NCBI GenBank assembly: GCA_963816535.1
Contig: CAWFKW010000003.1
Coordinates: forward strand, 1,708,059 to 1,772,058
Source: an uncultured Ignavibacteria bacterium
GTDB lineage: Bacteria > Bacteroidota > Ignavibacteria > Tepidaquicellales > OLB5
Length of the DNA: 64,000 nt
Reading direction: 5' to 3'
The notes under the pieces are model-generated. The model had not been told where the DNA came from. It saw only the letters and a program-made list of their open reading frames with translations, and did no database searches. Position 1 is the first letter of the stretch; every line of letters begins with the position of its first letter. A program made the position numbers and the translations under genes. Shown in pieces: positions 3,473-10,660 of this stretch.

Positions 3473-3500
3473 GATTTGAGATTTGAGATGTAAGATTTAA
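3473..3500 (+). repeat. Degenerate heptamer tandem repeat (GATTTGA x4)
   Basis: gatttga gatttga gatgtaa gatttaa, directly after the pnp stop. Confidence 0.6.
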
Positions 3501-7952: not shown

Positions 7953-8936
7953 ATGAATTTACTAAAATCAGCAAAAGGCGCAATCGCGCTTCTTATCATC
8001 GGAGGCATCGCATTTTACTTTACAGCGTGCAGCCAGGATAACATAACTTCGGCGGATAATTTAACCGACGAACAATATCTTCAGCAGGTGGTTCAGTCAG
8101 GCACGGGAAGCAATAACCAGGCTGAAGAAGACCTGATGGCGGATGAATCAACGGATATGGACAACAGCGGCGCGGTCCCCAATAATGATAATCAAATTGA
8201 TACGCTGATAAGATGGGGAAGAAGAATAACCGGCGTAAACGTAAATTATTCTATTACTTCGCTTGGCGATACCGAAAAGACCGTAAATGTTACAAGAACT
8301 ATCACCGGCAATTATATTATTATAGGAAACATCAACGGATCAGTTGATACGATAGTAAAACCATACACGGAAGTTTTGAAGAGATACGTCGCATTTAAGA
8401 GGATTGCAAGAACTAACCATCCGAGGTTTAACTGGAAGCTTTACCAGGTTTCTATGGCAGACGCCCAAACAACCGCTCCGCAGGTTGGAAGCGATTACGT
8501 TAAAATGACTAAACTTGAAGTTTACGTTAACGGTACGCTGAAATATACTTTGAACGGGCCGGATTTTACGCAGGATGTATTTACAACAATACGTTTTGGC
8601 GGCGCGGGTATACCCTCGGTGAACAAAGGCGACCAGGTCAAAATGGTCTTATATACCAACTCAACCGAAACCGAAACGGATATAGTCGCATGGCACTGGG
8701 CGCGCAATACGTTTGGTTTCCACAGGGAGCCATTTGCAATGACCTCAAATGTGTGGAACCCGTCTATAAACGCATATGACAGGACATACGAGAAGACTTT
8801 CACAATCTACATGCAGCACAGGGCAGGTATCTTCAACGGGTACCTAAGCGCAAATACGCATCAGTCGTTATACGATAGTTCCCCCTCGCTGTTTGCATCT
8901 GATGAGCTTGGAACGCCGTACAAAGTGCTGCCATAA
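7953..8936 (+). CDS. Hypothetical lipoprotein (paralogue B)
   Basis: Lipobox FTA-C, AGGAG RBS, colinear similarity to 6777..7754. Confidence 0.85.
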   Translation: MNLLKSAKGAIALLIIGGIAFYFTACSQDNITSADNLTDEQYLQQVVQSGTGSNNQAEEDLMADESTDMDNSGAVPNNDNQIDTLIRWGRRITGVNVNYSITSLGDTEKTVNVTRTITGNYIIIGNINGSVDTIVKPYTEVLKRYVAFKRIARTNHPRFNWKLYQVSMADAQTTAPQVGSDYVKMTKLEVYVNGTLKYTLNGPDFTQDVFTTIRFGGAGIPSVNKGDQVKMVLYTNSTETETDIVAWHWARNTFGFHREPFAMTSNVWNPSINAYDRTYEKTFTIYMQHRAGIFNGYLSANTHQSLYDSSPSLFASDELGTPYKVLP

Positions 8937-9079: not shown

Positions 9080-9682
9080 ATGCCAAACTTAGTACTTATA
9101 CGCCACGGTCAATCCGAGTGGAACAAAGAAAACCGTTTTACGGGGTGGGTTGATATACCCCTTTCAGAAAACGGCAGGGAGGAGGCGCGCCAGGCAGGCG
9201 AGAAGCTCAAAGGGATGAAATTCGATAAGGGTTACACCTCCGTTCTTCAGCGGGCAACCGAAACTTACGATATTGCAGTTAAGGTTGCGGGGATTAATAT
9301 CCCGCTGGAAAAGGATAAAGCTCTGAATGAAAGAATGTACGGAGATTTGCAGGGATTGAATAAAGACGAATGCCGCAAGAAGTTTGGCGAAGAACAGGTG
9401 CACATCTGGCGCAGAAGCTACGACACTCCGCCTCCAAACGGGGAATCTCTTAGGGATACCGCCGATAGAACGCTTCCGTATTATAAACTAAAAATTGAAC
9501 CGGAGTTAAAAGCCGGGAATAATATACTTGTGGTGGCGCATGGGAACAGCCTAAGGGCGTTGATAATGTACCTGGACGATCTGAGCCCGGAGGAGATTGT
9601 GAAAGTGGAAATACCGACAGGCGTGCCGATATTATATGAACTGGATGAGAATTTGAAAATTGTCAATAAAAAGGAATTATAA
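9080..9682 (+). CDS. gpmA: 2,3-bisphosphoglycerate-dependent phosphoglycerate mutase
   Basis: LIRHGQSEWN, NRFTGW, LNERMYGDLQG, AHGNSLR, EIPTGVP. Confidence 0.97.
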   Translation: MPNLVLIRHGQSEWNKENRFTGWVDIPLSENGREEARQAGEKLKGMKFDKGYTSVLQRATETYDIAVKVAGINIPLEKDKALNERMYGDLQGLNKDECRKKFGEEQVHIWRRSYDTPPPNGESLRDTADRTLPYYKLKIEPELKAGNNILVVAHGNSLRALIMYLDDLSPEEIVKVEIPTGVPILYELDENLKIVNKKEL

Positions 9683-10101
9683 TTAACCGCCAAGGACGCA
9701 AAGAAAAATGACTGAAGATGAAATAGGCAGGATAATTGTAGATTCAGCTTTGGAAGTACATAAATCACTTGGTCCGGGATTACTTGAGTCGGCATATGAA
9801 TCTTGCTTAAAACACGAACTTAGAATTAGAAATCTCCGGGTTAAATCTCAGCAAGAGCTTCCGTTGATTTACAAAGGGTTGAAGATGGAGATTGCATACA
9901 GATTAGATTTATTGGTTGAAGATAAAGTTATCGTTGAAATAAAAGCAGTGGATAAATTAAGCGATGTGCACCTTGCACAGATTTTATCGTATTTGAAACT
10001 AACAGATTTGAGACTTGGGTTTCTTATAAATTTTAATGTAAAACTTATTAAGGAAGGCATAAAAAGAGTTGCCAATAATCTTGGCGTTCTTTTGCGGTTA
10101 A
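9683..10101. mobile_element. Candidate inverted-repeat-bounded GxxExxY cassette
   Basis: Left end TTAACCGCCAAGGACGCAAAGA (9683-9704). Right end TCTTGGCGTTCTTTTGCGGTTAA (10079-10101) is its imperfect reverse complement. Interior is AT-richer than the flanks. Confidence 0.55.
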
Positions 10102-10109
10102 AAGCATGA
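9708..10109 (+). CDS. GxxExxY protein (PD-(D/E)XK nuclease superfamily)
   Basis: LGPGLLESAYE, YRLDLLVEDKVIVEIKAV, HLAQILSYLK, GFLINF. Confidence 0.93.
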   Translation: MTEDEIGRIIVDSALEVHKSLGPGLLESAYESCLKHELRIRNLRVKSQQELPLIYKGLKMEIAYRLDLLVEDKVIVEIKAVDKLSDVHLAQILSYLKLTDLRLGFLINFNVKLIKEGIKRVANNLGVLLRLKA

Positions 10110-10660
10110 GCGATTTTGATACAGCAGTTGGTTTGATGCACTCATACGTGAAGAACGAGAATCTTCGCAAGCACATGTATTCTGTGGCCGAAGCGATGCG
10201 CCAATATGCGCGCAAGTATAACGAAGACGAAGATAAATGGGCGGCTGTGGGAATACTGCATGACTTCGACTGGGAAATACATCCAAGCGCAGAGGAGCAT
10301 CCCGTAAAGGGCAGCGAGATACTGAAAGAAAAGGGCTGGTCTGATGAGATCCGGCGAGCTGTGCTTTCGCATGCGGATTATACCGGGGTTACAAGAGATT
10401 CGCTTATGGAAAAAGTTCTGTTTGCATGCGACGAGCTATCCGGATTTATAGTAGCTTGCGCGCTTGTGCAGCCCTCAAAGAAGCTTGAAGATGTGAAAGT
10501 AGAATCAGTTAAGAAAAAAATGAAGAAAAAAGAATTTGCCCGCAACGTTAACCGTGACGATATAATAAAAGGAGCGGAAGGGCTGGGCGTTCCGCTGGAT
10601 GAACATATTGAGTTTGTACTGAGCGCCCTGAAAGGAATTTCAGAAAAACTGGGGATGTAG
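10106..10660 (+). CDS. HD/HDIG-domain metal-dependent phosphohydrolase
   Basis: LRKHM, GILHDFDWE, LFACDELSG, KEFARNVNR. Confidence 0.9.
   Translation: MSDFDTAVGLMHSYVKNENLRKHMYSVAEAMRQYARKYNEDEDKWAAVGILHDFDWEIHPSAEEHPVKGSEILKEKGWSDEIRRAVLSHADYTGVTRDSLMEKVLFACDELSGFIVACALVQPSKKLEDVKVESVKKKMKKKEFARNVNRDDIIKGAEGLGVPLDEHIEFVLSALKGISEKLGM

Follow-up and report, generated by a model that had tools for sequence, protein, structure and literature searches.

A GxxExxY nuclease gene bracketed by inverted arrays of short tandem units: a candidate transposase-free cassette in an Ignavibacteria genome

The window analysed here is a stretch of 64,000 nucleotides (nt) from an uncultured Ignavibacteria bacterium (assembly GCA_963816535.1, contig CAWFKW010000003.1, positions 1,708,059 to 1,772,058 of the forward strand). 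The feature under study is a small GxxExxY nuclease gene lying between gpmA and an HD-domain gene and bracketed by two inverted arms, each made of two short tandem units capped by a tip (Table 1); we call the gene together with its arms the cassette. The gene, arm and junction coordinates given in an earlier note on this DNA were found to be exact to the base. The left arm is separated from the ATG of the cassette gene (9708) by AAAA and the right arm from the ATG of the HD gene (10106) by AAGC. The left-arm units, CGCCAAG and CGCAAAG, have a period of 9 nt, and the right arm, read as its reverse complement, presents the units CGCAAAAG, with one inserted base, and CGCCAAG; on the forward strand, the right-arm unit with the inserted base is CTTTTGCG.

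Table 1. Features of the cassette locus in the window (positions of the window) and further features of the window and its genome (contig handle and positions).
Feature	Location	Strand	Remarks
gpmA (2,3-bisphosphoglycerate-dependent phosphoglycerate mutase), upstream neighbour	9080..9682	+	TIGR01258, 258 bits; PF00300; stop TAA (9680-9682) abuts the left arm
Left arm TTAACCGCCAAGGACGCAAAG	9683..9703	+	tip TTAAC 9683-9687, unit CGCCAAG 9688-9694, spacer GA, unit CGCAAAG 9697-9703
GxxExxY/PDDEXK_3 nuclease gene, 133 aa	9708..10109	+	D67, E77 and K79 intact; the right arm encodes the last ~9 residues
Right arm TCTTGGCGTTCTTTTGCGGTTAA, antisense units, within the 3' end of the ORF	10079..10101	+	CTTGGCG 10080-10086, CTTTTGCG 10089-10096, tip GTTAA 10097-10101
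HD-domain gene, downstream neighbour	10106..10660	+	PF01966; TIGR00277 HDIG; ATG overlaps the cassette TGA (ATGA)
TIGR02436 four-helix-bundle genes (L038-L043)	C7:119376-119693, C1:328092-328412, C3:36729-37052, C6:223651-223911, C3:1111916-1112233, C3:1203787-1204032
GxxExxY copy G4	C3:349730-350062		one in-frame TGA
GxxExxY copy G6	C3:1552548-1552880		one in-frame TGA
Pure nonamer array TTAATCATG x27	C3:1598215-1598462		expanded arm beside copy G3
Pure nonamer array GAGTGTATA x22	C3:1791958-1792156
Pure nonamer array GTGTTCTTG x12	C6:216067-216181
ORFs flanked by GC-rich REP-like hairpins	C1:187523-187981, C7:67000-67422, C8:240648-241019, C2:37466-37810		flanking inverted repeats rank with the strongest of all ORFs; by eye from the translations, two resemble IS200/RAYT-type and two GIY-YIG proteins
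Short-period array GATTTGAGATTTGAGATGTAAGAT	3473-3496
Two adjacent paralogous ORFs, 325 and 327 aa	6777-7754, 7953-8936		just upstream of gpmA; N-termini resemble lipoprotein signals (translations read by eye)

A repeat search recovered the outer arm segments (9683-9696 and 10088-10101) as 14 nt with 86% complementarity, and a gapped local alignment of the two arms gave 19 matches in 23 columns with one gap. When the pairing of the upstream flank with the reverse complement of the downstream flank was scored by Smith-Waterman for every open reading frame (ORF) of the genome, the window cassette obtained a score of 24 and ranked 104th of 3194. Five occurrences of the tip motif TTAACCGCNRAG, with at most one mismatch allowed, were counted in the window, where 2.3 would be expected; two other tip-like matches (59459 and 60363), as read from the sequence by eye, lie inside a coding region and look like chance. 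The arm repeat of the window cassette, taken alone, is therefore weak. It becomes significant through the family to which the gene belongs: the left arm fits the family consensus, tttTTaAC followed by CRCARAG(1-3 nt)CRCARAG, and sequence comparison indicates that TTAAC-CGCCAAG-GA-CGCAAAG is the consensus end itself. Short contigs from two DNA runs (X1 and X2) were identical to the window and contained no joints.

The encoded protein belongs to the GxxExxY family (TIGR04256, 145.7 bits against a cut-off of 35, model positions 3-115 of 116) and matches PF13366, PDDEXK_3, with 142.9 bits against a cut-off of 22. Nine residues are invariant in 56 family sequences (G22, G24, Y30, D67, E77, K79, Q91, Y95 and F109), and the predicted catalytic D...(D/E)-x-K signature, together with the restriction-endonuclease-like fold of the model, places the protein in the PD-(D/E)XK superfamily. 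The predicted structure has a pLDDT (predicted local distance difference test) score of 92, and its nearest folds are Cas4 (4ic1 and 4r5q), the RecB-type nuclease domains of AdnAB/AddAB and lambda exonuclease, with E-values from 1.3e-3 upwards and template-modelling (TM) scores of about 0.5; a splicing endonuclease first appears at rank 22. Matches to Cas4 were also obtained with the PADLOC defence-system models, weakly (E 0.005), and no match was obtained in the PDB when the window protein was searched by sequence and by profile. A 2012 survey of the PD-(D/E)XK superfamily, in the portion available, lists the function of GxxExxY/PDDEXK_3 as 'Unknown' and mentions multiple transfers. The ORF does read through the right arm, as the earlier note had pointed out in arguing that the operon stays coupled; this read-through appears to be incidental, as the orthologous ORF at locus L017 stops ahead of the arm and the model shows disorder at residues 126-133, with pLDDT below 50.

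Inverted arms of this kind are a general property of the family. The window genome (G000) holds seven TIGR04256 matches, six above the cut-off and one fragment, which we number G1 (the window copy) to G7. The scores of their own left against own right flanks are 24, 19, 47, 42, 35, 27 and 51, so that six of the seven copies score 24-51, whereas 156 mismatched flank pairs, including those of six four-helix-bundle loci discussed below, have a mean of 17.8 (standard deviation 3.3, maximum 35). The low scorer, G2, is surrounded by hairpin modules that lack a gene and belong to the same unit class. The units themselves differ from copy to copy (CGCNAAG, CACTTAG, CACAAAG, CACGAAT, CGCAGAT or CATGATT), mostly with a period of 9 nt. 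Copies G4 and G6, each with one in-frame TGA, look like decaying copies; the G4 ortholog of the congener G001 is without the in-frame TGA.

For the relatives of the window copy (G1-like), a one-genome-per-species scan yielded at least 583 confirmed relatives, from which the best 80, with 49-63% identity to the window protein, were kept, 78 of them with full flanks. Judged by their record titles, they are distributed over at least a dozen phyla, among them Bacteroidota, Chloroflexota, Cyanobacteria, Acidobacteriota, Planctomycetota, Verrucomicrobiota, Pseudomonadota and Gemmatimonadota, and the archaea are represented by three methanogen or methanotroph records. Around these 78 genes, the unit C[GA]CN[AG]AG is strongly oriented, with 161 sense versus 51 antisense occurrences upstream and 193 antisense versus 53 sense occurrences downstream, the chance expectation estimated from the information content of the motif being about 11 units per class. 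At least two sense units upstream combined with at least two antisense units downstream were found at 44 of the 78 loci, and the reverse arrangement at six. The commonest unit spacings are 9 nt (94 cases), 8 nt (34) and 10 nt (23), and the arms end in a conserved tip (a T-run, A, A or C, then C, followed by the first unit), whose consensus was derived from 42 left and 52 right arms. The examination of the flanks of other GxxExxY genes, which the earlier note had proposed, thus revealed a strong enrichment for the same inverted arrays. The cassettes lie mostly between co-oriented genes, both neighbours being co-oriented with the cassette in 47 of 74 cases. Neither the arms of the window cassette nor those of 20 related loci matched any Rfam family; upstream of one cyanobacterial GxxExxY cassette, outside its arms, the Rfam family 5_ureB_sRNA was matched (L106:112-401, 94.4 bits, gathering score 40), probably overlapping a urease gene.

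A second subfamily shows that units and tips are specific to the protein lineage. The G3 protein of the window genome is 34% identical to the window protein, and a metagenome scan gave at least 526 confirmed relatives of it (G3-like), of which the best 80 (66-80% identity) were kept and 65 had full flanks. These 65 loci end in (T)TGTCTGAAC followed by NNNGATT units with a period of 9 nt. The CRCNRAG doublet (Motif 1) is present at 69/78 G1-like versus 0/65 G3-like loci, and the GATT triplet or GAACNNNGATT (Motif 3) at 1/78 versus 60/65. Indeed, both subfamilies coexist in the window genome, each with its own motif. The repeats therefore appear to follow the protein lineage and not the host, as expected if the repeat reader travels with the cassette and as anticipated in the earlier note, in which the nuclease was suggested to recognise its own repeats; this is an argument rather than a proof.

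The history of the gpmA-HD junction points to an old occupation of the site. The two genes are adjacent in all 23 family relatives examined, and the cassette gene is present at two of these junctions and absent from 21. Among the gene-less junctions, 15 keep strict units and represent decayed remnants, in which the sense units lie mostly toward the gpmA side and the antisense units toward the HD side, four contain other sequence and two are empty (6 nt at L015 and 7 nt at L031), a type of site that the earlier note had proposed to look for. The L017 cassette is 69% identical to the window copy and has the same TTAACC tip, its ORF ending before the right arm, while the cassette at L027, with 57% identity, the tip TCTCGC and a period of 8 nt, possibly represents an independent lineage that occupies this site. 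The junction of L026 consists of a right arm-left arm hairpin. GC-rich hairpins also fill several gpmA-HD junctions of relatives. From these filled, empty and remnant junctions, we conclude that the site has been long occupied and repeatedly eroded, and that the window copy is intact but not recent. The TTAA at the cassette ends, of which the earlier note would remove one copy together with the cassette, had to be discarded as a duplicated target: the outer bases form part of the inverted repeat, which continues outwards in other loci (e.g., TTTCACC.../...GGTGAAA at L063), neither L015 nor L031 has TTAA, and the G3-like tips differ (TGTCTGAAC).

Turnover was also observed between congeners. 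The flanks of the cassettes are about 80-86% identical in DNA between the window genome and G001, which has three TIGR04256 genes; of the seven sites, the gene is absent from G001 at four and present at two, and a G6-like gene is located at another site. In G001, the window site (G1) retains nothing but the left arm and the very start of the ORF, a 115-nt spacer with a solo three-unit array occupies site G2, and sites G3 and G5 are without a cassette and carry unrelated GC-rich hairpins. The cassette of site G4 is shared, and that of G7 is intact in G001 and internally deleted in the window genome, where both arms are kept. On a larger scale, the identity of the G1-like proteins across phyla (49-63%) is as high as or above that of the syntenic L027 copy (57%).

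Recent duplicates end at the arms. A single case, in the genome G129, was examined in detail: a pair of cassettes located on separate contigs is 95.9% identical over 608 nt, with unrelated upstream flanks and downstream flanks at most 69% alike. The identity begins in a T-run and the last bases of a right arm, just past the stop of the upstream gene, and ends after a second left arm. No such pair of near-identical copies at unrelated loci exists within the window genome. In G180, tandem cassettes that are 94% identical over 906 nt are separated by right arm-spacer-left arm palindromes. Gene-less derivatives were found as well: arm pairs are amplified in tandem beside G2, and in a gene-less hairpin beside G3 one arm has grown to 27 units. 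Two other pure nonamer arrays, of 22 and 12 units, exist in the window genome (Table 1).

Orphan copies, which the earlier note had suggested looking for, exist both as solo arrays and as gene-less hairpins. The window genome contains 85 CRCNRAG doublets versus 19 in a shuffled genome, grouped in 43 clusters, 23 of which are intergenic. Of the 151 genomes of the phylum sample, 30 contain CRCNRAG triple arrays, with up to 110 matches, and a reversed-pattern control gave almost none. A G1-like gene is present in 20 of these 30 genomes versus 40 of the 121 others, a comparison uncorrected for relatedness and to which the gene-flanking arrays contribute. The extreme case is G109, with 110 triple-array matches and five genes. 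Some of the arrays of G081 (C2, e.g., 329334-330242 and 446669-446993) and G175 (C1:31502-31874) form higher-order modules, themselves in tandem, with lengths of about 42, 100 or 174 nt. Cassettes are rare in viral contigs, since a viral collection contained five GxxExxY relatives only.

The same design surrounds genes of another kind. Inverted tandem arrays enclose all six TIGR02436 four-helix-bundle genes of the window genome (Table 1), the periods being 9, 7, 7, 7, 7 and 8 nt; TIGR02436 is the '23S rRNA IVS protein' family (IVS, intervening sequence) and is Avd-like according to PHROGs. Among the relatives of one of these genes in the phylum sample, 18 of 29 have scores no lower than the 95th percentile of cross pairs. 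GTGA(A/G)AN heptamers are common to the nearest homologues and other heptamers to the remoter ones, so that the heptamer type follows protein similarity. GTGARAN triple arrays were detected in 29 of 151 genomes, and a four-helix-bundle gene is present in 26 of these 29 versus 52 of the 122 others, again uncorrected for relatedness. Heptamers also dominate among the tandem arrays of at least three units in the window genome (204 arrays of period 7, versus 25, 12, 14 and 2 of periods 6, 8, 9 and 10), and several unit families recur at many loci (GGCAGAA, AATTACT/AATGACT, GTGAAAC, CAAATCT and TGTTAAC). The arrays are mostly solo, with 12 inverted pairs among 222, and the orientation of these 222 arrays relative to neighbouring genes followed no clear rule (72 versus 44). 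Intergenic TAACTGA heptamer arrays whose function is unexplained are described, in the accessible part of the report, from Beggiatoaceae, Cyanobacteria and Bacteroidetes, their patchy occurrence being suggestive of horizontal spread (MacGregor 2015, PMC4679880). The arrays around the four-helix-bundle genes link the cassette design both to these heptamer arrays and to ORF-bearing rRNA intervening sequences (PMC4990558). The GC-rich REP-like hairpins (REP, repetitive extragenic palindrome) that flank four other ORFs of the window genome (Table 1) are a system separate from the unit arrays.

On these grounds, the window copy is best read as an intact but old, decaying member of a widespread cassette type. 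The best-supported reading is that of a selfish DNA cassette whose Cas4/RecB-like nuclease would recognise its own repeat-array ends; judging from comparisons made at the sequence level, we hold it to be about as likely as not. A cassette of this type comprises the gene of a PD-(D/E)XK nuclease of about 125 aa between inverted arrays of two to four tandem units, each capped by a tip, the window version having the unit CGCNAAG with a period of 9 nt and the tip TTAAC. Each protein lineage has its own unit and tip, which accompany the gene from host to host, so that the most economical partner of the arrays is the cassette's own protein. In the mechanism that we propose, the arrays at the two ends would be occupied by several nuclease protomers, and cutting at or near the tips would let the gene be copied or relocated together with its arms, as well as gene-less arm pairs served in trans. 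Within the gpmA-HD operon junction, the cassette probably relies on read-through transcription, and it would have been inherited and eroded over family-level time instead of having arrived recently. The suggestion of a transposase-free selfish unit, made in the earlier note, seems to be borne out by the turnover, the copies and the cross-phylum relatives.

Several observations weigh against a mobile cassette. The paralogs of the window genome are only 30-43% identical to the window copy, indicating that there was no recent burst in this genome, and the window copy itself seems to have stayed in place and to have been inherited vertically. There is no known transposase, no target-site duplication of the kind that classical insertion sequences (IS) and miniature inverted-repeat transposable elements (MITEs) leave was seen at the empty sites or arm ends, and the abutted ends CTYNGYGGTTAACCRCNRAG, a possible circle junction, were found in none of 401 genomes. 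The fold matches of the nuclease are weak (E ~1e-3). Four-helix-bundle genes, which are not nucleases, carry such arrays, so that the architecture does not require a nuclease; arrays can also be abundant in genomes without a close G1-like gene (E <= 1e-25), with 75 matches in G081 and 11 in G175. Finally, co-variation of gene and arms would follow from their physical linkage alone, and lineage specificity is thus no proof of recognition.

The arms could alternatively act in RNA, pairing in the operon transcript as an intervening sequence, with RNase III or the encoded nuclease cutting the stem and thereby releasing or insulating the cassette mRNA. There is a precedent in the Coxiella IVS, described in the accessible text as an element of 428-444 nt with an S23p four-helix-bundle ORF and a 28-bp terminal stem that RNase III cuts in vitro (PMC4990558), and the S23p-family genes of the window genome carry the same inverted arrays. 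The terminal arm stem is present in both the minimum free energy (MFE) and the centroid folds of RNA 9676-10108, and the predominance of co-oriented neighbours would also suit a transcript-borne element. Moreover, the two arms of a cassette resemble each other more than those of different cassettes: the core variant is shared in 60% versus 14% and the spacer is identical in 26% versus 5% of comparisons in G1-like arms (24% versus 4% and 20% versus 9% in G3-like arms), implying some copy-specific homogenisation or constraint. Identical spacers are nevertheless limited to 20-26% of unit pairs, and the whole-molecule fold of the cassette RNA is no better than that of shuffled sequences (z = -1.05). 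Selection for pairing in the sense RNA should bias the arm mismatches toward G-U, and no such bias was found, with 39 GU-type, 52 AC-type and 108 transversion mismatches in 38 G1-like loci and 39, 35 and 132, respectively, in 35 G3-like loci; the RNA stem is therefore not supported, and the mRNA intervening sequence offered as a second possibility in the earlier note finds no backing in this mismatch spectrum. Pairing would not require unit sequences and tips to be conserved across phyla, no Rfam family lies on the arms, and no rRNA similarity was detected in the flanks of 160 related loci, unlike the location of IVSs in 23S rRNA. Considering all this, we regard the RNA explanation as unlikely. 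A role of the arms at the DNA level is favoured because the G-U bias is missing, because units and tips are conserved beyond what an RNase III stem needs, and because the modelled fold is nearest to those of DNA nucleases; processing of a transcript stem may add to it.

It is also conceivable that the arrays bind the encoded protein in a role other than movement, as autoregulatory operators or as sites for local recombination, repeat expansion or defence, the turnover then being ordinary gain and loss of genes. Lineage-specific units would be expected here too, and the occurrence of this design, with 7-nt units, around four-helix-bundle genes that encode no nuclease, the excess of orphan arrays over genes in genomes such as G109, and the expansion of an array in place to 27 units beside G3 are all compatible with it. 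The near-identical copies that end at the arms at unrelated loci, the tandem amplification of gene-less arm pairs and the cross-phylum distribution are, however, what one would sooner expect from a mobile unit than from a regulator and its operator, which makes this explanation quite unlikely in our judgement. A very improbable view is that the host itself makes intergenic heptamer-type arrays, which gather in permissive spots with small dispensable genes, and that the bracket in the window is coincidental. The abundance of mostly solo heptamer arrays in the window genome (204 versus 12-25 for periods 6 and 8), the modest rank of the window repeat, and the intergenic TAACTGA arrays already reported in what is accessible of PMC4679880 would agree with coincidence; against it, the unit class tracks the protein subfamily and not the host, the arrays are arranged canonically far more often than in reverse, the tips are conserved, and the duplicates carry gene and arms together. 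A broader version of the mobile-cassette reading, which we consider doubtful, is that the GxxExxY nucleases (with 8-10-nt units) and the Avd-like four-helix-bundle proteins (with mostly 7-nt units) are sequence-specific partners of short tandem intergenic arrays (STRR/TAACTGA; STRR, short tandemly repeated repetitive sequence). They might then form one new class of palindromic array elements, REP/RAYT-like in logic (RAYT, REP-associated tyrosine transposase), in which a lone PD-(D/E)XK nuclease would mobilise gene-bearing and gene-less arm pairs.

The closest parallels are found in several known systems. In the REP/REPIN and RAYT system (REPIN, REP doublet forming a hairpin), a single-copy enzyme gene is flanked by inverted cognate repeats, gene-less palindromes and orphans occur elsewhere, and the repeats differ by lineage. 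The cassette resembles it in having its gene between inverted cognate repeats and orphan copies elsewhere. In contrast, its enzyme has a predicted PD-(D/E)XK fold and is not an HUH/Y1 (IS200-like) transposase, its repeats consist of 8-10-nt units in tandem, capped by a tip, instead of a single GC-rich hairpin, and its orphans number tens, not hundreds, in the window genome, where what look like ordinary RAYT-like genes with GC-rich REP hairpins exist separately. MITEs and foldback-type transposons have inverted ends of subterminal tandem repeats and occur in autonomous and non-autonomous forms. The cassette shares with them, and with classical IS elements, terminal inverted repeats; its ends are likewise tandem units behind a tip, its arms expand and contract, and it exists in gene-bearing and gene-less forms, but it has neither a recognised transposase nor a target-site duplication, its sole gene being that of the ~125-aa nuclease. 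In integrons, attC sites separate promoterless cassettes with small ORFs. A promoterless small ORF in a host operon is also seen here, as are, in G129 and G180, tandem cassettes with right arm-spacer-left arm palindromes between successive genes; most GxxExxY copies are, however, single, scattered and bracketed on both sides, and the palindromes are built of lineage-specific units. An integrase or attI context did not come to light, although no search aimed at it was made.

The likeness to the 23S rRNA IVSs of Coxiella and Leptospira, as they are presented in the accessible text of PMC4990558, concerns their size (~0.4-0.5 kb), the one small ORF between complementary ends, the location within a host transcript, the sporadic distribution and the view of them as selfish; it extends to the S23p-family genes of the window genome, whose inverted tandem arrays are of the same style. 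The cassette differs in lying between protein-coding genes, in encoding a putative PD-(D/E)XK nuclease, and in ending in conserved unit arrays with a tip instead of an arbitrary stem, with mismatches that bear no sign of selection for RNA pairing. With the TAACTGA heptamer repeats it shares patchy, short-period intergenic tandem arrays, of which the heptamer arrays of the window genome are an example; those repeats are not linked, in the part of PMC4679880 that is accessible, to flanked genes, nucleases or four-helix-bundle proteins, whereas the cassette arrays are paired, inverted and tied to the protein lineage. We could not find the architecture of the cassette described in the open literature, subscription journals and supplements lying outside that scope.

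For the large GxxExxY/PDDEXK_3 family, a concrete candidate partner is now available in the unit arrays and tips that flank its genes. Should the nuclease prove to act on them, the cassette would represent a transposase-free mobile unit with a minimal enzyme. This would be relevant to the question of how ORF-bearing rRNA intervening sequences arose, and to the heptamer and nonamer arrays that await explanation in Bacteroidota, Cyanobacteria and other groups. Genome annotation would also be concerned, as the arms yield repeat-encoded peptide tails and spurious ORFs. Finally, the lineage-specific pairs of unit and protein would constitute a natural set of orthogonal DNA-recognition modules.

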